Counted from the stretch's first letter, positions 16,367-30,066 are shown. The stretch is 64,000 nt of DNA from Acidobacteriota bacterium (GCA_019244185.1 JAFATB010000005.1:96001-160000); one strand, 5' to 3'. Notes: generated by a model from the sequence alone, not told the origin. Program-made: numbers and translations.

Positions 16367-17146
16367 GTGCGCCCGAAGAAAAAGTGGGGTCAAAACTTTC
16401 TCCGCAATCGCGGCGCCGTGGCGAAGATCGTCGAAGCGGTTGACGCACAGCCGGACGAGGTCGTGCTCGAGATCGGCCCCGGCGAAGGCGTGCTCACCGA
16501 AAAACTGGTCGCGCTGCCGAATCCGCTCGTCGCCATCGAGATCGATCCCGAGCTCGCCGCGCGACTGCGCGCGCGTTTCGGCGAGCGGCTGACGCTGCGC
16601 AACGAGGACGCGGTCGACGCTCCGCTGCCGGAGACGCCGTATCGCGCCGTCGGCAACCTGCCGTACAACGTCGGCACGCCGATCCTCCGCCGCGTCATCG
16701 CCGACCCGCACTGCCGCCGCGCGGTGTTCATGCTGCAGAAGGAAGTCGCGGACCGCGTCGTGGCCAAGCCCGGCAGCGATCCGTACGGCTATCTCACGCT
16801 GTACGTCGCCGCGTTCGCGAGCGCGCGCATCGCCATGACGCTCGATCCGCGCTCGTTCCATCCGCCGCCGAAAGTACGCAGCGCCGTGGTCGTGCTCGAC
16901 CCGCGCGATCCGCAGCTGGCCGCCGAGCGCACGCTCGTACTCGATCTCGTCAGCGCGTCGTTCCGCATGCGCCGGAAGAAGCTGGTCAACAACTTGACCG
17001 GTTGGCGGAACCTCACGCGCGAGGACGTGCTGTCCTTGATGCAGCGCGCTGCCATCGACCTCGACGTCCGCGCGGAGACGATGTCGCTCGCCGACTTCGA
17101 CCGCTTCGCCGTCGCCTACTCCGCGCTCGCGTCGCCCGGCTCGTAG
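16367..17146 (+). CDS. rsmA: 16S rRNA (adenine-N6,N6)-dimethyltransferase
   Basis: GQNFL, EIGPGEG, GNLPYN, MLQKEVA, FHPPPKVRS and RRKKL motifs. Confidence 0.95.
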   Translation: MRPKKKWGQNFLRNRGAVAKIVEAVDAQPDEVVLEIGPGEGVLTEKLVALPNPLVAIEIDPELAARLRARFGERLTLRNEDAVDAPLPETPYRAVGNLPYNVGTPILRRVIADPHCRRAVFMLQKEVADRVVAKPGSDPYGYLTLYVAAFASARIAMTLDPRSFHPPPKVRSAVVVLDPRDPQLAAERTLVLDLVSASFRMRRKKLVNNLTGWRNLTREDVLSLMQRAAIDLDVRAETMSLADFDRFAVAYSALASPGS

Positions 17147-18174
17147 CGCCACTCCGTCTCATGCTTCGCCCCCTCGGCGAACCGTGGGTCGACGTAGTCC
17201 TCGAACGCGATGTCATGGTCGAGCACTCCGGTCTCGCGCATCAGCCGGACGATCAGCTCGAAGTCTTTGCGCAGCGGCGTGAGCGGCTGGTACTGCACGC
17301 GTTCGAGCGGCTTCGTCAGCGCCCACTTGAGCAGCTTCGGATCCTGGCGATAGTAGAAGCGGCCGACGAAATCGGCGGCGTGCTCGCGGCGCGCGCGGCG
17401 CTTCGGCGGGTTCTCGAGCCACAGTCCCGACCGCGCGATGCCGTCGACGAGCACCTGCACCGCCTCCGGCCTGCGGTCGATGACGTCCTGCCGCACGACG
17501 AGCACGCAAGAGATGAAGTCCGGCCAGTACTGCCGCGCGTGGAAGAGCACGCGCCCGAAGCCAGCCGACTCGGCCTGCGACGGATACGGCTCGCCCATCG
17601 AGAACGCGTCGATTGCGCCGGCCGCGAGCGCGCCGGCGACGTCCGGCGGCGCCATCTCGACAAGCCGCAGGTCGCGCGCGCTCATGCCGTTCGCCGCCAT
17701 CGCGCGGAAGAGGATCAGCCGCTCGTCCGAGTAGCGGCTCGGCACGGCCACAATCCTCCCTTTCAGATCGGCGAACGAATGCACCGGTCCGTTCTTCTGC
17801 ACGACCACGGCGCTTCCGTAGCGGTGTCCGAGGTAGACGATCTTGATCGGAACGCCCTGAGCACGCAGGGCAATCGCCATCGGCGCGACCATGAACGCCG
17901 CCTGCATCTGGTTCGAGATCAGCGCTTCCTTGATCTCAGGGAACCCCTGGAACATCCGCGGAATGAACAGATGCCCCGACTTCGAGTAGGCGGAGATGTA
18001 GTCGGTGACCGGGCACGCGAGGTGTCACGTGACCGGGATGTAGGCGACGTTGAGCTTGCGCTCGCGTTCCGGCAATCGATCGTTGAGCAGCACCTTCCAG
18101 TCGACGTTCATCGACAGGTGCGCGGCAGTGATGAACGCCAGCCATGCGGCAACGGCGACTCCGATCTTTCGCAC
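17116..18174 (-). CDS. NitT/TauT-type ABC substrate-binding protein with in-frame TGA at codon 50 (candidate selenoprotein; alternatively a nonsense-mutated gene)
   Basis: SD AAAGGAGGAG + GTG at 18174 is in frame with track ORF 17116..17955; single TGA at 18025-18027 in YIPVT*HLACP; NMT1-like C-terminal part (DLKG, GAIDA, EPY). Confidence 0.8.
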
Positions 18175-18196
18175 GCGACTCCTCCTTTCGTTCGTG

Positions 18197-18973
18197 TCAT
18201 TCGTGAAATGCCCAGCGCACCGCGCGCAGCGTCTCGGCGCGGCGGATCAGCGTGTCGAGAATCAGTCCGAGCAGGCCGATGAGCAGCATGCCGCCGACGA
18301 CGAGGTCGTAGCGCTTGCCGGCGTTGCGCGCGTCGATGATGAGATAGCCGAGCCCCGAGTCGACGGCGATCATCTCCGCCGCCACGAGCACGAGCCACGC
18401 GACGCCGAAGGCGATGCGCAGCCCCACCAGAATGCGCGGCAGGATCGCGGGAAAGAGCACGCGCGTGATGAGCGCCCGCGTCGAGAGCCCGAAGTTGCGC
18501 CCCGCCTGCACGTACATCGGCGGCACGTTGCGCACGCCGTTCATCGTGGCCACGATGATCGGGAACACCGAGGCGAGGAAGATGAGGAAGATCGGCGCGA
18601 GATTGCTGACGCCGAACCAGATCACCGCGAGCGGCATCCACGCCAGCGGCGAGATCGGCCGCAGCATCTGAATGACCGGATTCGCCGCGCGCGCGAGCGA
18701 GCTCCACCACCCCATCGCCAGGCCGACCGGAATCCCGATCGCCACCGCCGCGAGATAGCCGCACGCAACGCGGAACAACGAGTCGCCCATGTACGCCCAC
18801 AGCAGTTTTCGTCGTGCGAGCTCGAGCAGTCCGCGCACGACGTCCATCGGCGAGGGAAAGATCTTCGTTCCGCTGACGACGACGGCGAGCGCCCAGAACG
18901 CGAGCAGCACGAGGCCGAGCACGACCGCACGGATGCGTCCTTCTGCCCTCTGCCTTCTGCCTTCTGCCTTCAT
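18197..18973 (-). CDS. ABC transporter permease (NitT/TauT/SsuC type)
   Basis: LRPISPLAW; LVAAEMIAVDSGLG; multiple TMs. Confidence 0.93.
   Translation of the reverse strand: MKAEGRRQRAEGRIRAVVLGLVLLAFWALAVVVSGTKIFPSPMDVVRGLLELARRKLLWAYMGDSLFRVACGYLAAVAIGIPVGLAMGWWSSLARAANPVIQMLRPISPLAWMPLAVIWFGVSNLAPIFLIFLASVFPIIVATMNGVRNVPPMYVQAGRNFGLSTRALITRVLFPAILPRILVGLRIAFGVAWLVLVAAEMIAVDSGLGYLIIDARNAGKRYDLVVGGMLLIGLLGLILDTLIRRAETLRAVRWAFHE
18939..18970 (-). repeat. Heptamer tandem repeat (AAGGCAG x4.5) directly after the permease ATG
   Basis: ATG AAGGCAG AAGGCAG AAGGCAG AGGGCAG AAGG, encoding KAEGRRQRAEG. Confidence 0.9.
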
Positions 18974-19704
18974 ATCTGATGCGCCAGCCCGATCTCCCCG
19001 AAGATCTCATCGCGCAACGCGATGTATCGCGGATCGCTGAGATCGCGCGGATGCGCGAGATTCACGTCGACGACGCGCCGCACGCGTCCGGGCCGCGCTG
19101 ACAGCACGACCACGCGGTCCGCGAGCTGCACCGATTCCTCGATGTCGTGCGTCACGAAGAGAATCGTCTTCCGCTCCGCCTGCCAGATCCGAAGCAGTTC
19201 GCGCCGCATCTGCAGGCGCGTGATGGAGTCGAGCGCGCCGAACGGCTCGTCGAGATAGAGCACGTCGGGATCGACCGCGAGCGCGCGCGCCACTTCGAGC
19301 CGCTGCTTCATGCCGCCCGAGAGCTCGCGCGGATACGAACGCTCGAATCCCTGCAGGCCGACGAGCTGCACGTACCGCGCGATGCGCGCGCGCTTCTCGT
19401 CGTCCTTTTGGCGAAAGAGTCCGAAGCCGATGTTCTCTTCGACCGTGAGCCACGGAAAGACGCCGCGCTCCTGAAAGACGAAGATGCGCCGCGGATCAGG
19501 TCCCGTCACCGGCTCGCCGTCGATGGTGACGCGCCCTTCGGTCGGCGTCACGAATCCGCCCACGATGTTGAGCAGCGTCGACTTGCCGCAGCCAGAGGGG
19601 CCGAGGATGCAGACGAACTCGCCTGCGTTGACCGAGAGGTTGATGTCGTCGAGCACGCGCACGCCGCCGAAGCGCATGCCGATCGAGTCGAAGTGAACCT
19701 TCAT
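18970..19704 (-). CDS. ABC transporter ATP-binding protein
   Basis: GPSGCGKST, LSGGMKQR, YLDEPFGALD, VTHD; start trimmed to MKVHF. Confidence 0.95.
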   Translation of the reverse strand: MKVHFDSIGMRFGGVRVLDDINLSVNAGEFVCILGPSGCGKSTLLNIVGGFVTPTEGRVTIDGEPVTGPDPRRIFVFQERGVFPWLTVEENIGFGLFRQKDDEKRARIARYVQLVGLQGFERSYPRELSGGMKQRLEVARALAVDPDVLYLDEPFGALDSITRLQMRRELLRIWQAERKTILFVTHDIEESVQLADRVVVLSARPGRVRRVVDVNLAHPRDLSDPRYIALRDEIFGEIGLAHQI

Positions 19705-20456
19705 TCCGCGGCGTACCCCCAGCGCACGGATGGCAGCCGTTCGAGCCGGCGCATGAGCAGGTCGAGGCCGATGCCGATGAGACCGATGAGCACCATGCCG
19801 GCGACGACGAGGTCGTAACGGTTGCCGGCATTGCGCGCGTCGACGATGAGAAAGCCGAGACCGGAGTTCACCGCGATCATCTCCGCGGCGACGACGACCA
19901 GCCACGCGATGCCGAGCGTGATGCGCATGGCGACGATGAGCTGCGGAAGGATGCCGGGGACGACGACGCTCCGCACGAGCTCGGCGTGCGAGAGTCCGAA
20001 GTTGCGCCCCGCCGCGAGATGCACGCCTTCGAGGTTGTGCACCGCTTCGACCGTCGCGGTCGTCAGCGGCAGCACCGAGGCGAGGAAGATCAGGAAGATC
20101 GCCGCCGCGTCGCCGACGCCGAACCAGAGGATGCCGATCGGAATCCACGCGAGCGGCGAGATCGGCCGCAGGATCTGCAGGATCGGATTGACCGCGCTGT
20201 CGCCGCGTCGCGAGAGGCCTAACGTGACGCCCGCGGGCACCGCGACGGCGACCGCCGCAAGGTAGCCCCACGTCACGCGGAAGAGCGAGGCCACGACGTA
20301 GCGGACGAGGAGCCCTTTCTCCGCGAGCTCGCCGATCGCGCGCAACGTTTGCCACGGCGTCGGCACGAGCGTGCGCGGCGAGGCCGCGACCGCGAGTTGC
20401 CACGCGGCGACCGCAACAGCGATTCCCAGCAATGGAAGGAGTCGTTTCAGACGCAA
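19701..20456 (-). CDS. ABC transporter permease (second paralog)
   Basis: LRPISPLAW; VVAAEMIAVNSGLG; clear similarity to 18197..18973. Confidence 0.93.
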   Translation of the reverse strand: MRLKRLLPLLGIAVAVAAWQLAVAASPRTLVPTPWQTLRAIGELAEKGLLVRYVVASLFRVTWGYLAAVAVAVPAGVTLGLSRRGDSAVNPILQILRPISPLAWIPIGILWFGVGDAAAIFLIFLASVLPLTTATVEAVHNLEGVHLAAGRNFGLSHAELVRSVVVPGILPQLIVAMRITLGIAWLVVVAAEMIAVNSGLGFLIVDARNAGNRYDLVVAGMVLIGLIGIGLDLLMRRLERLPSVRWGYAAE

Positions 20457-20510
20457 ACTCGGGCGAGAGAGTAGCCGGTTTTGTGACCCCCGTCACGCGC
20501 AGCAAATAAC

Positions 20511-20526
20511 CGGCACCTCGTTTGCT
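20511..20526 (+). promoter_or_regulatory. Sigma-54-type -24/-12 promoter candidate
   Basis: CGGCAC-CTCGT-TTGCT (GG-N10-GC), 15 nt before the GGDEF gene start. Confidence 0.6.
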
Positions 20527-20541
20527 CCGAACGCGCCCTCA

Positions 20542-21498
20542 ATGGCGACCCGCTACGAGACACCCGCACGACGACGGAACGAACTGGAGCCCCCGACTCC
20601 CACGCGCGTTCTCGCCGTTGACGATGACTCCGCTTACCTCCGCCGCCTCGAGGTCGTCCTGACTCGCGCCGGCTTCGACGTCGTGACCGCCTTCGACGGT
20701 CCGACCGCGATCGAGCGCATCCGCGAAGACGGCGACATCGAGATCCTCATCAGCGATCTCACCATGCCCGGCATGGACGGCATCGAGACCGTGCGCCAGG
20801 CACGCACCGCGTGCGCGTTCCCCGGCCTCTACACGATCCTCCTCACCGCGAACGACGGCGCCGACGTGAAGCTCCGCGCGCTCGACAGCGGCCTCGATGA
20901 CTTTCTCACCAAAGCGTCGACCGACTCCGAGATCGTGGCCAAGCTCCGCAGCGCCGCACGACGCCTGGCCATGGAACGCCGCCTCCAGGTCGAAAACGAA
21001 GAACTGCAGACGCTCGCCCTGACCGACGAGCTCACCGGCATCGCCAACCGCCGCGCACTCTTCCGCGCCGCCGAAAGCATCCTAGGCGCCGGCCGCACGA
21101 TGACCGTCGTCCTCTTCGACCTCGACCGCTTCAAGCAGATCAACGACAGCTACGGCCACCTCATGGGCGACCGCATCCTCGCCGACGTCGCCGCCTGCCT
21201 CAAAGCCCACACGCGCGTCGGCGACGTGATCGCCCGCTATGGAGGCGACGAGTTCGTCCTCCTCCTCCCCGACACCCCCACCCCCGAAGCCCGCGCGATC
21301 ACGCAACGGATCCGCGCCAGAATCGCCGCCCTCCGCTGGACCCATTCCGGCAGCGTCATCTCCATCAACCTCGGCACCGGCCTCTCCACGGCCGGCTCCG
21401 CCAGCACCATCGAAACGCTGCTGGCGGAGTCGGACGCAAAGCTGTACGAGGGGAAGGTGGGGAGGCATCAGGAGCTGGATCTTTCGATCCAGCTCTGA
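20542..21498 (+). CDS. Receiver + GGDEF diguanylate cyclase
   Basis: VLAVDDD, ISDLTMPGMDG, TDELTGIANRR, DLDRFKQINDSYGH, RYGGDEF. Confidence 0.94.
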   Translation: MATRYETPARRRNELEPPTPTRVLAVDDDSAYLRRLEVVLTRAGFDVVTAFDGPTAIERIREDGDIEILISDLTMPGMDGIETVRQARTACAFPGLYTILLTANDGADVKLRALDSGLDDFLTKASTDSEIVAKLRSAARRLAMERRLQVENEELQTLALTDELTGIANRRALFRAAESILGAGRTMTVVLFDLDRFKQINDSYGHLMGDRILADVAACLKAHTRVGDVIARYGGDEFVLLLPDTPTPEARAITQRIRARIAALRWTHSGSVISINLGTGLSTAGSASTIETLLAESDAKLYEGKVGRHQELDLSIQL

Positions 21499-21513
21499 TG
21501 CCTTTGGTTCTTA

Positions 21514-22023
21514 CTACAGTTCCACGCCGGTGACCGCCGGTTCGCGGCCTAGCAGCGCAAGGAATACCGCGCCGGACACGTGCTGTCCCATCGCGTTACC
21601 CGTACCGGCAACGATGTAAAGGTCATCGCGGTCCGGATACTTCAGCCAGACCGCCTGAAGCAACTGTTCCGGGACATCGAGGATACGAATGAGCACCTCG
21701 GGCCGGGAGTCTGCTCCATCCACGATCTCCTCGATTTGCAGCGCCATGAAACCAGCTGCGATCTCGACGACCTGCTCGGTGCGCGAGCGTGCAAACGCGG
21801 ACGCGCGCTCGCCGACTCGCACTTGATGATGCCAGCCAGTATGCTCGGCGATCTCTTCGATCCGCGTCGCCTCCGGCGGAACCTCTCCTTTGTACGTCCA
21901 CACGGCAATGGATTGCTCGAGTGCGACCCTGCTCTCGCGCAACACGCCGAACAATGACGTAAAGCGTGCGGCGATGTCGTCGCGCAATGCTTCCGGTACT
22001 TCGTAAGTGTCAGTCAGTGCCAT
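21514..22023 (-). CDS. Hypothetical protein, probable partner of the papain-like protease
   Basis: SD GAAGG; GWHHQV and RILDVPEQLLQAVWL segments; last gene of the island operon. Confidence 0.75.
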   Translation of the reverse strand: MALTDTYEVPEALRDDIAARFTSLFGVLRESRVALEQSIAVWTYKGEVPPEATRIEEIAEHTGWHHQVRVGERASAFARSRTEQVVEIAAGFMALQIEEIVDGADSRPEVLIRILDVPEQLLQAVWLKYPDRDDLYIVAGTGNAMGQHVSGAVFLALLGREPAVTGVEL

Positions 22024-22038
22024 GATGAGTCCTTCCCT

Positions 22039-22587
22039 TCAGTCGACGATCCACGTCTGGACCCACGTGCCGTAATAGCCGGTCGGCAGGTGCGGCCGCG
22101 GTACGGCTCCAGTGGAGTTGTTCTTTGCGCAGTCGAGAATCATTACCTGGTCCGGAGCCGAGACGCCGACGACCAGCGCCATGTGACCGGTCACCCTCCG
22201 GCCGCTCGCGCGGCGGAAGCCGAGGATCAGGAGCTTATTCTCGTCAACGACGTTTGTTTGTATTTCCGCGAAGGACAGCTGCGGCTGCGGAGCGGGCGAG
22301 ACCGTGAGACCTTCGGTGGGGCACACCAGGGTTTCGAAGTCCCGAGAGTCACAGGAAACATTGCACCGGAAGGGTCGGGTGCAACAATCAAGGGACGCAT
22401 CCTGCAGAAACGTCTGCACGATCTCGCACTGGCTTCTCGTGCTTCCACGACTCTTCAGAACCATCTGCACAGTCGCTGCCCAGCACCATTCGTTTTGCTC
22501 TGCGCCGCACCACGTCACGGGAGCGGCATGCAGCCTCGGCGTCGCTGCGAGCGGTTGGGTTAACAGAATCTCATTGTTACGAAACAT
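22039..22587 (-). CDS. Papain-like cysteine protease (C39-like/C70-like)
   Basis: SD TAAGGAG; EQNEWCWAA (catalytic Cys), GHMALVVG (His), MILD (Asp); Cys-rich insert; no signal peptide. Confidence 0.78.
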   Translation of the reverse strand: MFRNNEILLTQPLAATPRLHAAPVTWCGAEQNEWCWAATVQMVLKSRGSTRSQCEIVQTFLQDASLDCCTRPFRCNVSCDSRDFETLVCPTEGLTVSPAPQPQLSFAEIQTNVVDENKLLILGFRRASGRRVTGHMALVVGVSAPDQVMILDCAKNNSTGAVPRPHLPTGYYGTWVQTWIVD

Positions 22588-22599
22588 GCTGAATTCTCC

Positions 22600-23550
22600 T
22601 TATGGCAGCCACAGCGCCGGCGGACAATTGTGTCCACCCGCGGTGCCGTATCGAATGACGGGCGCGGTTCGCACGCCGGCGTCGTACTGTTGCGCGATCA
22701 ATGCGAAAGTCATCTCAGCGGGCGGGTTCTCAATCAGATCGACCTGATTGAGCCGGTGTGAATGCGTCTCCTGCGGTGGATGCGGCAGCCCCACAGGGTC
22801 GGTATGGCCATAGAGATAACGCAGCGGCGCCGGCGGGGGCGTGTGGCACATTGTGTAATACAGTGGAAAATGCCGATCGACCTCGCAGTCCGACATTCCA
22901 TCGAGCTCGTCGTCGAGGATGATTTCCTCCGAGGGCACGTTGCCGATGCGCACCTCGATTGTATTCAGACCTCCGACCGAGCCGATCTTCAGCACGTCGG
23001 TACCGGCGGCGTCTGTCATGCGCAGTGTGATGAATTCTTTGTCTGTCTGAAAGTTTAGGCAAACGTCCTGCGCGATGAACTGATCGAAGGGGCCTTCTTC
23101 AGCGAAGCCCCATTTGAATTTGGGCGCGACCCATGTCGCGGATAGATGGCCCCCAGTGAGCTTCAACCGGCCCGAGACGATTCGAGGGTTGGTCGACGCG
23201 AAGACAGTCTGTGAGAAACGGGCGTGCACGGGGTTGGGGACCGCGGCCGTCATCGGCAGGATGTAGAGTGTGTTCATCGAGAAGCCCGTCTGTGGCATCT
23301 CGTCGATCGACAAGGCCTTGCCGTCGAGATAGAACGCGCTGAGTGTAGCTGGTACTTTTTTTAGCCGTCGATGATTGTCGATTTCGTCCGGCACGCGGGT
23401 CGAGCCGGGCTGCAGCGCCGCCGACTCGGCGAGCACATAAGCCTGATGCGGCTCGGGTGCGTCGCTGAAATTTTTGAGTATTACGGTCGCGCCCGTGTCA
23501 TCAGGTACGAGTGCCGTGATACCTGTGAAAATGATGTGTACATCCTTCAT
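22600..23550 (-). CDS. Hypothetical protein following the CHAT gene
   Basis: SD AAAGGA; 316 aa, beta-rich; HFPLYY and C-terminal GGHNCPP. Confidence 0.8.
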   Translation of the reverse strand: MKDVHIIFTGITALVPDDTGATVILKNFSDAPEPHQAYVLAESAALQPGSTRVPDEIDNHRRLKKVPATLSAFYLDGKALSIDEMPQTGFSMNTLYILPMTAAVPNPVHARFSQTVFASTNPRIVSGRLKLTGGHLSATWVAPKFKWGFAEEGPFDQFIAQDVCLNFQTDKEFITLRMTDAAGTDVLKIGSVGGLNTIEVRIGNVPSEEIILDDELDGMSDCEVDRHFPLYYTMCHTPPPAPLRYLYGHTDPVGLPHPPQETHSHRLNQVDLIENPPAEMTFALIAQQYDAGVRTAPVIRYGTAGGHNCPPALWLP

Positions 23551-23683
23551 AATCGTTCCTTTGTGTGGTGGTGTGGCAGGGACAGCGTGAGCACACGCTC
23601 AGCGCGTCGGTGTAGTACCAGTCATAGATTGTTCGCGAATCGACCCGGACCTGCGCAGCAGCGTTGCCGCTTCCTTGCTGCAC

Positions 23684-23711
23684 AATGGAGGGACGCGGCG
23701 CTCGTTTTCCC
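23684..23711 (-). promoter_or_regulatory. Candidate ECF promoter, copy A
   Basis: GGGAAA-N10-CGTCCC-TCCATT; resembles the copy at 27151-27179. Confidence 0.45.
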
Positions 23712-23728
23712 GATGAAAGTTCGGGAGG

Positions 23729-26700
23729 TCAGGCGGAGATCGTTTGCGCCGGCAAACGCCGCTCGATCGGCCCAAGGACGCGAAGTGCGCCCCAATATTG
23801 AGGCCTTCGGCGGAGCGGACTTGGGGAATGGAGATATTGCAGTTGTGTGCCGCGCAATGCGTCGGCGGCGGTCATTCCGCCGCGGATGCGGCGATGAAAT
23901 GAACTGAAGAAAGTCGCAGCAAACGTATCGTCGATGTCGTACAGAGGAGCGACGACGGCTCCGGCTCCGGCGGCGAGGAAGGCTCGCGCGAGACTGAGAG
24001 AGCCTTCAGCCCTCCGCGTTTTTCCGGTGGCGGTCCTGCAGTTCGCGAGCACGACGAGCGGCTGCCGTCTCAGCGTCCACGAACCGACCGTCTCCGGCGA
24101 CAAGGTCGTCTCCTGCGCGCCGAGCGCAAAACCAGGACCGTCATCGGCACTCGTCGCCGGCTTCGAGTGACCAATGAGGTGAATGACGTCCGCGTCCGTA
24201 GCCGCGGCGCGAATGACGTCCTGCGTCGCCTGCCGGTCGTAGAAACTGGTCGACCGCGGATAGGCCCCGATCACACCACGAGCTTCGGCGTCGGCGCTCG
24301 CCAGCGGCGTGAGCTGGCGATCGCCGCCGGCAGCACGCTCGGCAACCACAAGGACAGTATCTCGTGCTGACGAGGCAGCCGCACCGGAGAGTGCTACCGC
24401 CGCACTCGGTGCGACGATCGCCGCGTGCTGCTCGATCAGGTATTCGCCACGACTTCGGTCGTATAACGCCGAAAACGGCACCTCGTCGTCGAAGGCAGCA
24501 TCCGGAACCAGGACGAGCATCTCGTTTGGACCCACGCGTGCGCGCAAGGCCAACGGCAAGAGCAAGTCGTGGAGGTCGGCAACCGCGCCTTCACACGGCA
24601 AGGAGAGCTGGGCCATGCATGTGGCGACTCGATGCACCGCCGCCGCAACCGTCTCCGTCGGCGCTGCGATCCGCACGCCAATCACATCGTTCGAAGTCAC
24701 ACACCACACGAGCAGCGCGTCCGGCAAGACGGCCCACTCGAGGAGCGCCGTGTTCGCCGGCACCTGCGCGGCGATTGCGCGTGCGTCGTTCTGCGGCGCG
24801 ACATTGCGACGCTCCGCGAGCAGCCGTGCCCGTGAGTGTTCGGCGACGATCAGCGCCTCTCCCCACTCCCCATCGCGCGACAATTCTCCTAGCAGCCGCT
24901 GACTCGCCTCCGCCGCGACGTCGAGATACGAGATCCGCTCCACGGGATTCAGGAGCTCGCGTCGTTGCTGCTCCACGTACCGCAGCGCCGTTCGGAAATC
25001 GGCACGCGCTGCATGCGAATCGCGCAGTTGCTGGTGCGCGATGCCGCGCGCGAGAAACACGTCGGCGACACGAAACGTGTCGGAACGCCGCGCCGTGCGG
25101 CCGAGGTAGCGATTTGCAGCCGTCATGGCGATTGCAGGTTCGGTGGCGGCAATCGTCCGAGCCAAAACCGCGTCGTAGTTCTCGACCGCGCGCTCGCGCG
25201 TCGACGGGTCGGCGATTGCAGTCGCCGCGTAGGACGCGCGTCGAAATGCTGCCTCTGCACGACCGCGCGCGCCAGAACGATGCATAGCGACCGCGTACCA
25301 GAGATCGGCGTCCGCGATCGCAGTCGGATCGCCGCTGACGTTCGCGATCGTCTTGAGCCTGCTCGCCACTGCGACCGCAAGCCGTGGATGCTGGTCATCG
25401 CGCAGCAGAGACTGGAGCATCTCCTGCAGGGAAACATGCAGCCGGTCGTGATCGCCCGCTCGGTACAACCCGGCGATTCCCTCGATGCGCGCCCCCCAAC
25501 CGTCGTCGGCCGCTCGGAGGTACGATGCTCGCTCGGCGATCATTGCCTGGAGAGCGGCAATCGTGTCGGTTTCGCCGGCCTTTGTGAGTTGCGCCAGCGC
25601 CGAGGCGTAGGGACGGCCGGCGGCGCCGGCGCGGTCTGACGCAACGTACGCCAAGCCTTCGATCCATGACAGCCTCGCGTCAAGGGTCGGGTACCGTTTC
25701 GCGTCGTAGGCTGGCGAACCGCGGACGCGCGCGATCTCGCGCAATGCAACGTCGTAGCGTGCGCAATACCACTGCGCACGGGCAGTCGCGAGACGCGAAA
25801 GCCACTCCAGCCGCGTATATGCCCGCAGATGCTCGCTGGCGGCTTCAAGAAGCGTCGCCGCCCGTTGCACATCGGTTTTCTGAAGTTGCTGCCCCTGCCG
25901 CAGTTCCTGTAAGCCGGACGCCGCGCCCGCGGAACCGTTGCGCCGCAGATCCGCCAATGCCGCGGCGAGAAAAGCATCGCCGCGGCGTTCGAACGTGGCG
26001 GCAGCGGTTCGCAGGGCAAAGTCGTCAGAATCCGCTCCATCGACGATCCGCGCCTCTGCGGCGTCGCGCATTTGTCGTGGATGCTCGGCCACGAGGCGCG
26101 CAATCGCCGCCGCGTCGGATCGCGCGATCGCGCGCGCGAGAAGAGCGCCCCCGTCCCACGAGCTGCTGCTGGTCGGCTCATTGAGATCGGATAGCTTCTG
26201 TCGCGCCTCGGTCGCCCAAGGCGACTGCGGATCGAGGCGGAGGTAATCGGCCCAGGCAACCTTTGCGTCCTCCTGAAGACCGACCGCGGTCAGGGCGAGT
26301 GCACGATTCCAGGCGATGGGGGGCGAATGCTCGAGGTTCCATGCTCGCTGGACGCACTCCGCTGCGGCGAGATCATCCGTGCGCGCGCGCGTGTAGAGGG
26401 CGCGCGCCGAATAGGCGGCGGAGAGATCGTTGAGCAACGTAGCGTCTTGCGAGGCGGTGATTGCCGCACTTATCGATGACTGATGCGTCTCACGCGTCAA
26501 CGCTTTTTCGAGCGTCGTGACTGCCGCTCGCGGGTCGCCGAGCAGCAACTCGGCAACGCCGACGGCGTGTAGGTTCTTCGGCGTCGCGTGCGCGTCGGCG
26601 GCATGGCGGATGTCCGCTGCCGCAGCCATGAGCGCCCAGCGATGCTCGTCGCCTTTGTCGCTGCCGTCCTGGCCGCCTTCGCCACCGCGCATGTGGTTGT

Positions 26701-27076
26701 ACTCTTTGTACGAGAAACCTCCGCTCAATCGTCCCTCGATCGGGCGACTCTCGAGATCGTCCGCAGCTGCAATCAGCTTGGCGATATCCGCCGAGCCGGA
26801 ACGGCCGGGCAGGAAACGATAGACGTACAAAGCCGCAATCGCCGCGAGCAGCGCCGCAGTTGCAGCCATCCACCAACGCGAGCGGAAAGGCCGGATTCGA
26901 GTGGGCTGAGCCGCGGTGGAGAGCTCGGTCGCCGTCATGAAGACAGAGCGGCACTCGCCGCAAACACTGACGTGTTCGATTGCCGCGCGGCGGGCGCTCG
27001 CGTCCAATGTGCCATCCGCTAAGCCGGCGAGGGTCTCCGGGTCGAGATGATTGGACGGTTCGGTGAGAGTGCTCAT
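23729..27076 (-). CDS. Zinc-finger anti-sigma (zf-HC2) / TM / TPR / CHAT (caspase-like) protease fusion
   Basis: HLDPETLAGLADGTL...EHVSVCGECR; TM WWMAATAALLAAIAALYVY; helical repeats; VLVPD..VPFSAL, IHLIGHS, LVVLANCRT, SLARAFLAAGA, QYWG. Confidence 0.9.
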   Translation of the reverse strand: MSTLTEPSNHLDPETLAGLADGTLDASARRAAIEHVSVCGECRSVFMTATELSTAAQPTRIRPFRSRWWMAATAALLAAIAALYVYRFLPGRSGSADIAKLIAAADDLESRPIEGRLSGGFSYKEYNHMRGGEGGQDGSDKGDEHRWALMAAAADIRHAADAHATPKNLHAVGVAELLLGDPRAAVTTLEKALTRETHQSSISAAITASQDATLLNDLSAAYSARALYTRARTDDLAAAECVQRAWNLEHSPPIAWNRALALTAVGLQEDAKVAWADYLRLDPQSPWATEARQKLSDLNEPTSSSSWDGGALLARAIARSDAAAIARLVAEHPRQMRDAAEARIVDGADSDDFALRTAAATFERRGDAFLAAALADLRRNGSAGAASGLQELRQGQQLQKTDVQRAATLLEAASEHLRAYTRLEWLSRLATARAQWYCARYDVALREIARVRGSPAYDAKRYPTLDARLSWIEGLAYVASDRAGAAGRPYASALAQLTKAGETDTIAALQAMIAERASYLRAADDGWGARIEGIAGLYRAGDHDRLHVSLQEMLQSLLRDDQHPRLAVAVASRLKTIANVSGDPTAIADADLWYAVAMHRSGARGRAEAAFRRASYAATAIADPSTRERAVENYDAVLARTIAATEPAIAMTAANRYLGRTARRSDTFRVADVFLARGIAHQQLRDSHAARADFRTALRYVEQQRRELLNPVERISYLDVAAEASQRLLGELSRDGEWGEALIVAEHSRARLLAERRNVAPQNDARAIAAQVPANTALLEWAVLPDALLVWCVTSNDVIGVRIAAPTETVAAAVHRVATCMAQLSLPCEGAVADLHDLLLPLALRARVGPNEMLVLVPDAAFDDEVPFSALYDRSRGEYLIEQHAAIVAPSAAVALSGAAASSARDTVLVVAERAAGGDRQLTPLASADAEARGVIGAYPRSTSFYDRQATQDVIRAAATDADVIHLIGHSKPATSADDGPGFALGAQETTLSPETVGSWTLRRQPLVVLANCRTATGKTRRAEGSLSLARAFLAAGAGAVVAPLYDIDDTFAATFFSSFHRRIRGGMTAADALRGTQLQYLHSPSPLRRRPQYWGALRVLGPIERRLPAQTISA

Positions 27077-27975
27077 GGAATTGCGCCCTCCCCTTTTGTG
27101 ACCTTCGCCCCTCCGGAAGTCCCACTCGTTGTGGGAGGCCCACCTACGGGATTGGTGGGACGGAAGGCATGGATTTCCCCACCATGGGAAAAGAAATCGA
27201 AGTGGATGTCCGTGTCGCCGCGATCGAGAAGCGTGGCGACATCGCTCCTTGCGACGCCAGCCCGCTCGAGCGTGCGTCGCATCGTCCCGTAAAGCCGGTC
27301 CAGTCGCTTATAGAGGCGCTTCTGTTCGATGTGCAGCCTTTGCGCGATGTCGGGCACTTTCAGGGCGTGCCAGAAGCGCATCTGCAGGATGAGGCGGTCC
27401 TCGGCGTCGAGAGTGCCGAGGAGCTCGTCGATGGCGCGGGCGGCGGTGCGGGCGGCGCGTTCGCGCTCATGGATCTCGACGCGTTCGTCGGCGCCGGCGT
27501 CGACGGCGGGCGCGTCGGCGCTCACCTCTTCCGAGACGATCGTCGGGCGGGGGGTGCGGGGCGGGAGGCGGACGTAGATCGCCTCGAGCTCGCAGGCGGT
27601 GTATTGCGAGCCGGCCGGGGTGGTCAATACCTTGACCGCCTCGTCGAACGTGTAGCCGTCGCGGGTGACGAGGCGTTCCAGCGTAATGGCCTTGTCGCCG
27701 AGGCGTTTGGCTTCGGCGGAGGGGCGCCATTTCCCCCAGCGTTCGACGCGCCATTGATGCGCGAGGCGGGCGATCACGGTCGTGAGGTAGGTCGAAAACG
27801 AGCTGCGGCCCTCGAACTTGCGGATGACGGCGTAGTCGTCGTCGAGGAGGCGGACGCGGACCTCCTGCATGAACTCGAGGGTCTCGTCGCGGTTGAGATG
27901 GTCCCGGCGCGCGACGAAGGCGGCGATGCGCTCGATCGTGCCAAGGTGCTCGAGGTACGTCTCTTCCGCGTTCAT
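27073..27975 (-). CDS. ECF-type RNA polymerase sigma-70 factor
   Basis: Region-2-like IRKFEGRSSFSTYLTTVI; region-4 LDAEDRLILQMRF...VPDIAQRL...LYKR; ATGA overlap with the CHAT gene. Confidence 0.88.
   Translation of the reverse strand: MNAEETYLEHLGTIERIAAFVARRDHLNRDETLEFMQEVRVRLLDDDYAVIRKFEGRSSFSTYLTTVIARLAHQWRVERWGKWRPSAEAKRLGDKAITLERLVTRDGYTFDEAVKVLTTPAGSQYTACELEAIYVRLPPRTPRPTIVSEEVSADAPAVDAGADERVEIHERERAARTAARAIDELLGTLDAEDRLILQMRFWHALKVPDIAQRLHIEQKRLYKRLDRLYGTMRRTLERAGVARSDVATLLDRGDTDIHFDFFSHGGEIHAFRPTNPVGGPPTTSGTSGGAKVTKGEGAIP
27151..27179 (-). promoter_or_regulatory. Candidate ECF promoter, copy B (inside the sigma 3' end)
   Basis: GGGAAA-N11-CGTCCC-ACCAAT, about 75 nt before the CHAT start. 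Confidence 0.45.
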
Positions 27976-28120
27976 CGGACCCAGTGACGCTTAGGCGTCT
28001 TACGCAGCCGCGGCGAGCCGCGGGACCTATAGATTTCGGGAACGCCGTCAGTCTAACAGGATCGGTGAGGAACGGAAGGTCGGACGCGGCGGACGGAACG
28101 TCCACCGTGTCCGAAAGTTT

Positions 28121-28411
28121 TTAGCCGCGGCCTTTGCGGGTGCTTGCGACGTCGTCAGTGCCGTCGAGCCGCTCGACCTGCTGCTTGCCGCCGAGGCCGT
28201 CGTGCGCGGCCTCGCGCGTCTGGCGCTCGTCGAGTTTCGCGCCGGTGCGCTGCGACTCCCACTGTTCGGTGGTCAGTCCGCGCGGGCGTTCCGCGGCGTC
28301 GCCCTGGTACAGGTTGCCTTTCACGATATGGATGACACGGTCACCTTTGACGCGCGTCTTGCGGTCCGGCGAGCCGGCTTTCGGATCGGGACCGCGTTGG
28401 TCGTCTCTCAT
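28121..28411 (-). CDS. Small hydrophilic hypothetical protein
   Basis: SD GGAGG before MRDDQ; charged, Gly-rich 96 aa. Confidence 0.6.
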   Translation of the reverse strand: MRDDQRGPDPKAGSPDRKTRVKGDRVIHIVKGNLYQGDAAERPRGLTTEQWESQRTGAKLDERQTREAAHDGLGGKQQVERLDGTDDVASTRKGRG

Positions 28412-28468
28412 GGTTGCCTCCGCCTTCGGAAGAGCAAAGGACATGCACGGTGGACGCGAAAAAGAAAC

Positions 28469-28498
28469 TTGACATCATCCCGATTAGACTTATTCTAA
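28469..28498 (+). promoter_or_regulatory. Sigma-70 promoter overlapped by a Fur/PerR-type 7-1-7 box
   Basis: TTGACA-N16-TATTCT; palindrome TTAGACT-T-ATTCTAA at 28484-28498. Confidence 0.8.
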
Positions 28499-28503
28499 AT
28501 TTC

Positions 28504-28926
28504 GTGAACGTCAAACATGAGCCCGGCGAGCAGTTGCGCGAGCATGGCATCCAGCCTTCCGCGCAGCGCGTGGCGGTGGCGGATTACGTCCTGCGCACGC
28601 TGGAGCATCCGTCCGCCGACCTCGTCTGGAAGCGGGTCAAAGAGAAGTTCCCGTGGATCTCCCGCGCGACGGTCTACAACACGCTGAACCTCTTCGTCGA
28701 CAAGGGCCTGCTGCAGCGCCTGACCATCGCCGAGGACTGCGTGATCTTCGACCCGATCACGGAGACGCACCATCACTTCATCGACGAGTCCACCGGCGCG
28801 ATCCACGACGTGCCGTGGGAGCGCGTGCAGGTCTGCAACATCGAGTCGCTGCGCGAGTACGACGTCCACGACTACCAGGTGGTGATGCGCGGCAAGCTCC
28901 GCCGCACGCCGAAACGCACCAAGTGA
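28504..28926 (+). CDS. Fur-family regulator (PerR-like)
   Basis: QR..V, HPSA, SRATVYNTL, HHHF; precedes ahpC/ahpD; GTG start 7 nt after the -10. Confidence 0.9.
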   Translation: MNVKHEPGEQLREHGIQPSAQRVAVADYVLRTLEHPSADLVWKRVKEKFPWISRATVYNTLNLFVDKGLLQRLTIAEDCVIFDPITETHHHFIDESTGAIHDVPWERVQVCNIESLREYDVHDYQVVMRGKLRRTPKRTK

Positions 28927-28978
28927 ATCACCCGCCCGGCCCCGCGCCGGGCACAGTACGCAAAAGGAGAAGATCAAG

Positions 28979-29515
28979 ATGTTGACTGTTGGAGACAAGT
29001 TTCCCGAGTTCAAGGTGACGGCGAACGTCGGCCGCGAAAAAGGCAAAGAGTTCAAGGACGTCACGAACAAGGACTTCGCCGGCAAGTGGCTGGTCTTTTA
29101 CGCCTATCCGAAGGATTTCACCTTCATCTGCCCGACGGAGATCGTCGAGTTCGGCCGCCACACGAATGATTTCGCCGACCGCGACGCCGTCGTTCTCGGC
29201 GGCTCGACCGACAACGAGTTCTCGCACCTCGCGTGGCGCAACGCGCATCCGGACCTCGCCGACATGCCCACTCCGCTCGTGCACATCAACCCGAAGCTCG
29301 CCAACGAGCTCGGCATCGTGCACAAGGAAGGCGGCGTCGCGCTGCGCGTGACGTTCGTCGTCGATCCGGACGGCATCATCCGCTCGGTCAGCGCGTACGA
29401 CCTCTCGGTCGGCCGCAACGTCGGCGAAGTGCTCCGCACCCTCGACGCCCTTCAGACCGACGAGCTTTGCCCCTGCAACTGGCAGAAGGGCGAAGACACG
29501 ATCAAGGTGGCGTAG
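28979..29515 (+). CDS. ahpC: 2-Cys peroxiredoxin
   Basis: YPKDFTFICPTE; ELCPCNW; SD AAGGAG. Confidence 0.95.
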   Translation: MLTVGDKFPEFKVTANVGREKGKEFKDVTNKDFAGKWLVFYAYPKDFTFICPTEIVEFGRHTNDFADRDAVVLGGSTDNEFSHLAWRNAHPDLADMPTPLVHINPKLANELGIVHKEGGVALRVTFVVDPDGIIRSVSAYDLSVGRNVGEVLRTLDALQTDELCPCNWQKGEDTIKVA

Positions 29516-29517
29516 CG

Positions 29518-30066
29518 ATGAGCGCCGCGATGGAAGAGCTGCGCGCCGGAATCCCCGATGCCGCGCGCGACATCAAGCTGAACCTGCAGAGCGTTCTGCA
29601 GCAGAGCTCTCTCACGCCGGCGCAGCGGTGGGGCGTGGCGATCGCTTCGGCGGTCGCCACCCACAACGCGCGTCTGCGCGATGCGCTCGTGGCCGACGCG
29701 AAACAGGAAGTCGGTCCAGAGGTCATCGATGATGCGCTCGCGTCGGCGGCGCTCATGGCCATGAACAACGTGTACTACCGCTTCCGCCACATGATCGCGA
29801 AGGAGTCGTACGAGCGGATGCCGGCGCGGCTGCGCATGCAGCGCATCGCTCGTCCCGCATCGAACAAGCCGGACTTCGAACTGTTCTGCCTCGCCGTCAG
29901 CGCGATCAACGGCTGCGAGATGTGCATCCGCTCGCACGAGCAGGCGGTGCTGCAGGGCGGGCTGACGGAGGAGCAGGTCCACGACGCCGTACGCGTCGCG
30001 GCGGTCGTCAACGCCGCGGCCATCGCGATCGAGTTGCCCGCCGACGTCGCCGCTCCGGTCGCGTAA
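29518..30066 (+). CDS. ahpD: Alkyl hydroperoxide reductase D
   Basis: DIKLNL, MAMNNVYYRF, AVSAINGCEMCIRSH. Confidence 0.93.
   Translation: MSAAMEELRAGIPDAARDIKLNLQSVLQQSSLTPAQRWGVAIASAVATHNARLRDALVADAKQEVGPEVIDDALASAALMAMNNVYYRFRHMIAKESYERMPARLRMQRIARPASNKPDFELFCLAVSAINGCEMCIRSHEQAVLQGGLTEEQVHDAVRVAAVVNAAAIAIELPADVAAPVA

Follow-up and report, generated by a model that had tools for sequence, protein, structure and literature searches.

Here, we analyzed a block of five genes in a 64,000-nucleotide (nt) stretch of DNA from an Acidobacteriota bacterium (GCA_019244185.1, JAFATB010000005.1:96001-160000), which probably encodes an envelope switch of the DdvS/DdvA type together with a three-part cassette that keeps its design but is hypervariable in its content and that would signal by proteolysis. 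The whole stretch is referred to as the window, and positions are counted from its first letter; G000 denotes its source genome, and labels such as L044 denote loci from relatives. The five open reading frames (ORFs) are co-oriented, as the first-pass annotation, made from the sequence alone, had reported, and follow one another on the minus strand: an extracytoplasmic function (ECF)-type factor of the σ70 family (27073..27975, 300 amino acids [aa]; TIGR02937 and Sigma70_r4_2); a DdvA-like anti-σ factor with a zinc-binding anti-σ domain (ZAS), one transmembrane (TM) helix, a scaffold, a TPR part, and a CHAT domain (23729..27076, 1115 aa; Pfam CHAT and family profile); g3, from an unnamed CHAT-linked family (22600..23550, 316 aa; profile and context); g4, a Cys-rich papain-like protease of the C70/C39_2 type (22039..22587, 182 aa; invariant triad columns and the Pfam scores of its relatives); and g5, the partner of g4, with no known family (21514..22023, 169 aa; adjacency to g4 relatives). 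The σ stop and the CHAT start share an ATGA, located behind a GGGGAGGG motif, and the close spacing described for the downstream genes holds as well, with gaps of 12 nt (g3/g4) and 15 nt (g4/g5) and Shine-Dalgarno sequences similar to AGGAG or GGAAGGA. To this layout we add a 178-nt spacer between the CHAT gene and g3 (23551..23728, minus strand; without Rfam match), which was absent from the earlier annotation.

The anti-σ protein carries the main argument. Its cytoplasmic zinc-binding domain (residues 1 to 60; 26897..27076, minus strand) was recognized by sequence motif and alignment and contains H35-x3-C39-x2-C42 (HVSVCGEC). The following single TM helix (residues 68 to 89; 26810..26875, minus strand) was predicted by a Kyte-Doolittle window scan, with no second early segment in the hydropathy prediction, and the CHAT caspase-like protease domain (residues 834 to 1101; 23774..24577, minus strand; Pfam E 7.1e-43 and alignment) holds the dyad His966/His970 plus Cys1013. 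The three residues of the zinc motif and the three catalytic positions are invariant in 10 anti-σ-CHAT proteins, from which we built a family profile. Taken singly, the window protein matches zf-HC2 with an E of 0.0062, below the Pfam cutoff (17.1 versus 22.2 bits), while the same domain scores above the cutoff in L044 and L043; likewise, its TPR matches are weak and below the Pfam cutoffs, with the relatives supporting a TPR assignment. The earlier claim of a σ factor followed by a zf-HC2 anti-σ/TPR-CHAT fusion was thus borne out, with the His-Cys dyad intact. Searched alone against the PDB, the window anti-σ factor gave no match at an E of 0.01; the profile of 10 sequences matched DdvA (8ROT_B, 8RW5) at an E of 1.5e-34 in two stretches, one covering ZAS, TM helix, and scaffold and the other covering CHAT. 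Other CHAT structures in this search reached an E of only 2e-4 to 8e-3. DdvA from Myxococcus xanthus is a single-pass ZAS anti-σ factor with a periplasmic scaffold-TPR-CHAT part, whose CHAT domain has been proposed as a site-1 protease acting in trans (PMC11506125, consulted in part). Judged by this homology, the σ and zf-HC2/TM/TPR-CHAT genes are a DdvS/DdvA-type pair. Because a single TM helix follows the ZAS domain, and in view of the match to DdvA, we predict a TPR-CHAT part outside the cytoplasm, with ∼1020 residues (scaffold, TPR, and CHAT) predicted to be exported.

The new finding lies downstream of this pair, in g3. The first-pass annotation had named in advance the co-occurrence of downstream homologs with σ/CHAT pairs as one point on which its reading would stand or fall, and for g3 such a co-occurrence was found. 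Of 60 distinct g3-family frames, 58 are preceded by a co-directional CHAT C-terminal frame, often within a σ/CHAT pair and ending between 95 nt inside and 281 nt before the g3 frame; the remaining two begin at contig ends. One of the 58 (L067) is from the unpublished genome G024 and by itself carries none of our claims. More than half of these CHAT-to-g3 gaps (32/58) fall in the range of −16 to +5 nt, as if the two genes were translationally coupled; the 178-nt gap of the window is among the family's largest. A TPR-CHAT gene likewise adjoins every g3 relative in the first eight contexts that we examined, and all eight loci from other families in a phylum-wide sample show the CHAT-g3 link. With a broader profile, the g3 family was detected in 72/124 genomes of the bacterial family, in 32/34 of the genus, and in 11/401 sampled across the phylum.

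By sequence, g3 is an unnamed, beta-rich family that is strictly linked to CHAT. An exhaustive HMMER search returned 30 representatives at an E of 1e-3, 12 at 1e-10, and 2 at 1e-30 (query included), all of them unnamed and ∼270 to 350 aa long. When aligned, they have in common a VHxIFTGI strand at the N terminus, the motifs IEVRIGN and DxHxxLYY, and a C-terminal GGxNCPPxLW; once the alignment is widened to more distant members (27 sequences), two positions stay invariant (G10 and Cys309) and three almost invariant (H35, N204, and P311). The linker between the core and the C-terminal Cys is variable in length (24 to 107 residues), and 4 to 23 residues follow the Cys. Most g3 proteins begin right at the conserved strand; those of L080 to L082 are lipoprotein-like, with a linker before it. 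The AlphaFold2 model is all-beta (pLDDT 85.2, pTM 0.85), with low confidence at residues 270 to 305 and high confidence at the extreme C terminus. None of the 27 members matches Pfam, and comparisons of the model gave no match at an E of 0.001 in Foldseek against the PDB (best E 4.9e-3, TM 0.10) and a best Z of 2.9 in VIA-align over 48,161 chains. The ESM Atlas offered no usable match (the pLDDT of its own model is 0.25), and PHROGs yielded only a 22-residue match at an E of 0.0045. Single queries with g3, g4, and g5 in an index of 5.8 billion proteins returned only the respective query, single-protein queries with g3 and g5 found no relative in 60 related genomes, and a single-query locus search for g3 found none among 45 pattern matches.

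The gene after g3 usually encodes a peptidase, the family of which varies among C14, C70, C1, S8, trypsin-like, and M36. A common order is CHAT, g3, an ORF of ∼130 aa, and C14; a C14 enzyme was seen in 17/29 top-scoring loci (most of the others are cut by the 1.5-kb flank) and also in L083, L132, and L133. Peptidase_S8 occupies the slot in L044, L089, and L091, and also in L168, where g3 was undetected; trypsin-like enzymes occupy it in L085, L138, L159, and L084, and in L136 without a detected g3; fungalysin-like M36 enzymes are found in L080, L081, and L082, and in a second cassette of L133 without a detected g3; Peptidase_C1 is found in L092; and the C70/C39_2 type is found in L022, L090, L175, and the window. 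Fusions between g3 and the protease also occur (C14 followed by a g3 domain in L041; g3 followed by a weak C14 in L126), and in L127 the g3 domain precedes an unassigned C-terminal half. Three features suggest that g3 is a target of cleavage or docking and not an inhibitor of one protease class: a single family is the partner of six unrelated peptidase families, the conserved C-terminal peptide comes after a variable linker, and in some loci g3 and the protease are fused. The source genome contains further cassettes with an exported TPR-CHAT protein, a g3-like protein, and Peptidase_C14, at G000:C4:104000-120000 (L038), G000:C4:716000-734000 (L039), and G000:C6:88000-102000 (L041, whose C14-g3 fusion protein has 831 aa); one of the three has a DUF4236 gene downstream, and one lies beside a 990-aa Tubulin_2 protein.

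For the window itself, the slot enzyme g4 carries a Cys35, His135, and Asp152 triad that is invariant in six sequences, as are Q53, C54, C68, C69, and C75. On its own, g4 remains below the Pfam cutoffs (Phytochelatin, E 1.1e-3; C70, E 0.037, 14.4 versus 19 bits); its relatives in L022, L023, L024, L025, L090, and L175 score above the C70 cutoff, at 32 to 41 bits. Four Cys residues other than the nucleophile (QC, CC, C) are common to g4 and the enzymes of L022, L023, L024, L025, and L090, most of which lack a signal peptide; this pattern suggests disulfides or a metal site. A g5-like gene follows the g4 relative in L023, L025, and L090, which with the window makes four loci, and thus protease and partner form a real two-gene unit. 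The annotation of a papain-like protease with a partner is supported by the conserved triad and by the recurring g4-g5 pairing. The succession of CHAT, g3, C70, and g5-like genes is found again in L090, elsewhere on the chromosome, where the G+C content at third codon positions (GC3) is 0.52 to 0.62. The AlphaFold2 model of g5 is unusable (pLDDT 41). Two proteins upstream of g4 relatives (335 aa in L023 and 727 aa in L025) were considered as g3 kin and rejected, as they are not g3-like.

Gene content at this site changes by exchange of the cassette as a whole. DNA homology to relatives spans positions 17100 to 21461 and 27139 to 30043, with none in between by blastn, which delimits a variable cassette (21462..27138, minus strand) composed of the anti-σ-CHAT gene and g3 to g5. 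The proteins encoded in the flanks, in contrast, have close orthologs next to this σ gene in other species, with a phmmer E of 1e-66 to 1e-177. Upstream of σ these are a Fur/PerR-like regulator and a protein of 178 aa; downstream of the block they are a GGDEF response regulator and ABC transporter genes, with the ABC transporter adjoining the block in all syntenic loci. Between orthologous loci, the σ factors are 47 to 70% identical, the anti-σ-CHAT proteins only ∼30%, and g3 to g5 are unmatched; within the anti-σ factor, identity is highest in the ZAS domain, the scaffold, and the CHAT catalytic blocks and falls to ∼0.2 across the TPRs. Turnover thus takes the form of cassette replacement while the position in the chromosome stays the same, which is more in keeping with selection for diversity (conflict or recognition) than with housekeeping. 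The base composition described in the first-pass annotation, with most of the block richer in A/T and with less host-like codons than its flanks, was confirmed in part. GC3 is indeed low in four genes (CHAT, 0.73; g3, 0.71; g4, 0.74; g5, 0.71; compared with 0.83 in σ and 0.84 to 0.94 in the flanks), and the cassette core of relatives shows low GC3 as well, but total G+C dips only over the three downstream genes and the spacer (0.59 to 0.62 over 21500 to 24000 versus 0.66 to 0.70).

A scan with a σ profile found 217 relatives, from which we kept the best 79 loci, all from Thermoanaerobaculia or other Acidobacteriota metagenome-assembled genomes except one labeled Gemmatimonadaceae. A CHAT gene of at least 600 aa, fused or split, follows σ in 28 loci; 43 contain a short anti-σ factor only, and 8 contain neither. 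The short zf-HC2 form (270 to 340 aa; L094, L095, L113, L117, and 39 more) is found at the same syntenic site and matches only residues 1 to 300 of the long form. The TPR-CHAT part, g3, and the protease are thus present or absent as a set. At a threshold of E 1e-4, g3 was detected in 16 of the 28 loci with CHAT and in 4 of the 43 with a short anti-σ factor, and in these 4 it follows a divergently oriented TPR-CHAT gene of low GC3. L157, L158, L159, and L163 carry such divergent islands (TPR-CHAT, g3, and a trypsin-like or unknown protein) abutting pairs of σ and short anti-σ factor; with a GC3 of 0.41 to 0.61, compared with 0.83 to 0.99 in their flanks, they look recently acquired. Relatives of the window CHAT protein, with or without the anti-σ domain, are present in 49/61 genomes searched, with many paralogs each, and in all 36/36 other genomes searched of the same bacterial family.

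The σ factor was identified by TIGR02937, the NCBIfam ECF superfamily model (E 3.8e-16, 59.2 bits versus a cutoff of 42.9), and by Sigma70_r4_2 (E 6.8e-6). Like its orthologs, which are ∼290 aa long, it carries ∼60 inserted residues that separate region 2 from region 4 and a conserved C-terminal tail of ∼55 residues (GDQEIHLD...FRPS), an arrangement that is unusual among ECF σ factors. Upstream regions of orthologous σ genes contain TGnTAGACT, similar to an extended −10 element, followed by GTTCCCGAAAT (28050 to 28058 in the window, minus strand), and a GACGC-N4-GCGTC hairpin or palindrome lies just 5′ of the start codon (27985 to 28000, minus strand). These elements are common to the window, L080, L082, L085, L089, and L044; they look like a housekeeping-type promoter and a leader element rather than an ECF promoter. 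At the other end of the block, a hairpin with a perfect 17-bp stem and a GAAA loop (21458..21517) lies between the convergent g5 and GGDEF genes, overlapping the end of the response regulator gene just beyond the g5 stop. It is probably a two-way terminator, and it accounts for the single, subthreshold row obtained with Rfam over 21000 to 28600. Scans for σ70 promoters and terminators gave signals no better than shuffled sequence, and a comparison by eye of the σ upstream region with the 178-nt spacer for a common ECF-type promoter returned only short shared words, which we do not regard as evidence.

Taken together, these data are consistent with the following mechanism, which we put forward tentatively and, as a complete chain, with somewhat less than even confidence. 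The TPR part would sense an extracytoplasmic cue, upon which CHAT would cut in trans, acting on g3, on the slot protease, or, in line with the model for DdvA, on its own linker. Intramembrane proteolysis would then free the σ factor, again as proposed for DdvA, while g3 would couple CHAT to the slot protease as a partner, substrate, proprotein, or adaptor. The outcome would be either a two-protease cascade or a protease-processed proprotein, with the variable linker before the C-terminal Cys peptide as the cleavage site.

Several observations weigh against this proposal. The most serious concerns compartments: the TPR-CHAT part is predicted to be periplasmic, yet g3, g4, and g5 of the window lack a signal peptide. 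In the relatives, most TPR-CHAT proteins of g3 loci have a predicted N-terminal anchor or signal, several C14, M36, C1, and S8 slot partners have predicted signal peptides, and g3 itself is predicted to be exported as a lipoprotein in L080 to L082; the mismatch in the window is the main unexplained point of the proposed module. Regarding the slot, no recognizable protease follows g3 in nine loci: g3 is the last gene in L118, L130, and L141; it is followed by DUF4347 in L145, by proteins without a family in L088 and L158, by a 1031-aa protein with a subthreshold Lactonase (7-bladed beta-propeller) match in L162 (E 4.9e-4), and by small ORFs and then DUF1028 and M13 in L164; L163 also belongs here. 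Furthermore, g3 was undetected in 12/28 σ-linked CHAT loci. With respect to σ control, the conserved element upstream of σ resembles a housekeeping extended −10 rather than an ECF promoter, neither a promoter nor an RNA element was recognizable in the CHAT-g3 spacer by promoter scan and Rfam, and the σ profile retrieved no DdvS chain from the PDB, only generic sigma-4 matches (best SigF, E 1.4e-4). Finally, PADLOC identified no defense system among the five proteins, the sole row at an E of at most 1e-3 being BovA, through the CHAT domain (E 9.5e-5), which leaves the suggested defense role unsupported.

Among the alternatives, the block might be a σ-controlled operon for a secreted protease in feeding or envelope maintenance, with a degradative exoprotease in the slot and g3 as its chaperone, prodomain-like inhibitor, or anchor. 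Such a function would explain the signal peptides or propeptide motifs of the M36 and some S8, C1, and trypsin-like enzymes, the adjoining ABC transporter in all syntenic loci, and the g3-protease fusions. However, one partner family for six peptidase families would be odd for a class-specific inhibitor or prodomain, the C14, C70, and some S8 slot enzymes (that of the window included) lack a signal peptide, and replacement of a cassette at a fixed site, with CHAT proteins at ∼30% identity between such well conserved flanks, is not expected of nutrition genes. We consider this explanation unlikely.

Equally improbable is an analogy to Spätzle and Toll, according to which CHAT, g3, and the protease would form an extracytoplasmic cascade with a proligand: a protease would cut the g3 linker, the TPR superhelix would read the processed g3, and CHAT would clip the anti-σ factor to free σ. 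The cutter may be the slot protease itself or a foreign protease that the slot protease mimics or guards against. The system may then serve diversifying recognition (of kin, competitor, or phage) rather than stress sensing, with sensor, ligand, and protease exchanged as one allele at an unchanging locus.

Bacterial gasdermin operons contain varied partner proteases, and the range found here (C14, CHAT, S8, trypsin-like) resembles them. Here, g3 might be a pore-forming or toxic proprotein of a cell death or defense module, restrained by its C-terminal peptide until a neighboring protease releases it, which would suit the variable linker of 24 to 107 residues before the invariant Cys peptide, the model confidence that drops at residues 270 to 305 and recovers at the C-terminal end, and the hypervariability of the locus. 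Nevertheless, g3 has no PADLOC or Pfam match, the Foldseek and VIA-align searches revealed no match to a gasdermin or any other fold, and most partners are predicted to be exported rather than cytoplasmic; we regard this reading as distinctly improbable.

The first-pass annotation had favored a CRISPR-independent counterpart of Craspase, in which a cytoplasmic TPR-CHAT protease such as Csx29 cuts a σ-binding protein such as Csx30 and thereby frees σ. Its independence from CRISPR agrees with PADLOC, which found no CRISPR-type component among the five proteins, although the window as a whole was not searched for CRISPR. The domain vocabulary (TPR-CHAT, anti-σ element, σ factor) is indeed the same, and Csx29 chains turn up in our anti-σ profile search, but at an E of 8.4e-3 (7y9x_B) as opposed to 1.5e-34 for DdvA. 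The analogy fails on topology, since the ZAS domain followed by one TM helix, together with the homology to DdvA, puts TPR-CHAT outside the cytoplasm, and the CHAT paralogs without a ZAS domain bear N-terminal signal or anchor segments. As far as sequence can tell, the protein is a DdvA-type, site-1-like sensor and not a cytoplasmic protease cutting a cytoplasmic σ binder, and we regard the Craspase counterpart as very improbable.

It is scarcely credible that g3 to g5 are unrelated cargo whose adjacency to the σ/anti-σ pair has no function, as the 178-nt spacer, the lower G+C, and the empty single-protein queries might suggest, given that the g3 relatives detected by profile always lie beside CHAT genes, that the order CHAT, g3, C70, g5-like recurs at another site in L090, and that the region without DNA homology takes in the CHAT gene too.

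Returning to the DdvS/DdvA-type switch with its exchangeable cassette, we asked how much of it has been described. The σ/anti-σ-TPR-CHAT pair belongs to a known kind, here in a phylum not listed in print: in the consulted parts of PMC11506125, DdvA-like proteins are reported from Myxococcota and one Comamonas, and table S7 of that paper mentions neither Acidobacteri nor Thermoanaerobaculia. Among the matches listed, "DdvA" in the anti-σ sense occurred only in two Myxococcus papers. The remark in the first-pass annotation that no characterized system is so arranged stands for the downstream part, while for the pair it does not, as this is of a characterized kind (PMC11506125). The cassette of CHAT, g3, and a variable protease, as well as the g3 family, was not found in the literature searched by title or abstract, and the main text of an eLife 2020 paper on conflict systems contains no occurrence of "CHAT."

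With these results, the range of DdvA-like anti-σ factors is no longer confined to the Myxococcota and the one Comamonas reported in the consulted parts of that work. DdvA is the only TPR-CHAT anti-σ factor studied, and both its signal and the cleavage by CHAT are still in question (PMC11506125, as far as consulted). The acidobacterial loci offer candidates for the target or partner of CHAT, namely, a strictly coinherited protein of new fold and a second protease, so that the question posed by DdvA becomes an assay with two or three purified proteins. Their evolutionary pattern is also unusual, with a fixed slot, conserved flanks, and a set of sensor, partner, and protease that is replaced wholesale across six peptidase families, which suggests that diversity is being selected for in a signaling system of the envelope. 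Overall, the locus points to an unstudied protease-based module for signaling or conflict.

Compared with known systems, g4 resembles Peptidase C70 (AvrRpt2-like)/C39_2 in its Cys-His-Asp triad, which its relatives have as well; the relatives pass the C70 cutoff, whereas g4 itself falls below it and differs by its five extra invariant positions and its dedicated 169-aa partner. Type III-E Craspase (Cas7-11, Csx29 TPR-CHAT, Csx30, and σ) shares the logic of a TPR-CHAT protease tied to a σ factor, but Csx29 is cytoplasmic and RNA guided, unlike the predicted extracytoplasmic TPR-CHAT of the window. In Haliangium ochraceum type III-B CRISPR, a SAVED-CHAT protein activates a C14 caspase, PCaspase (bioRxiv 10.1101/2023.06.23.546230, consulted in part); this cascade sets a precedent for the activation of another protease by CHAT in the neighborhood of a σ factor. 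Both loci encode a σ factor and, besides the CHAT protease, a further protease (C14 there, g4 here). The Haliangium system, as described in the consulted parts, is cytoplasmic, triggered by cA3 via SAVED, and linked to CRISPR/CBASS, in contrast to the window with its predicted exported TPR-CHAT, its g3 partner, and its slot for six peptidase families; no SAVED domain was found on the window CHAT protein in Pfam at an E of 0.1. The closest counterpart is DdvS/DdvA (PMC11506125; PDB 8ROT, 8RW5, and 8RLZ). The window differs from it in its acidobacterial host lineage, in a σ factor that is not detectably DdvS-like, in the lack of a CBASS/CRISPR regulon among its five proteins (PADLOC), in window-type anti-σ factors that are ∼30% identical between orthologous loci, and in the g3 partner and swappable protease after CHAT, a feature that does not appear in the consulted parts of that work. 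Common to both, to the extent that the source was consulted, are an ECF-type σ gene directly upstream of a single-pass anti-σ factor and, in the latter, an N-terminal zinc-binding ZAS domain and, after one TM helix, a scaffold-TPR-CHAT part that has a His-Cys dyad and lies in the periplasm (by prediction in the window), and the H/H/C/C ligand pattern of the window is that of the "HHCC-type" in table S7 of PMC11506125.

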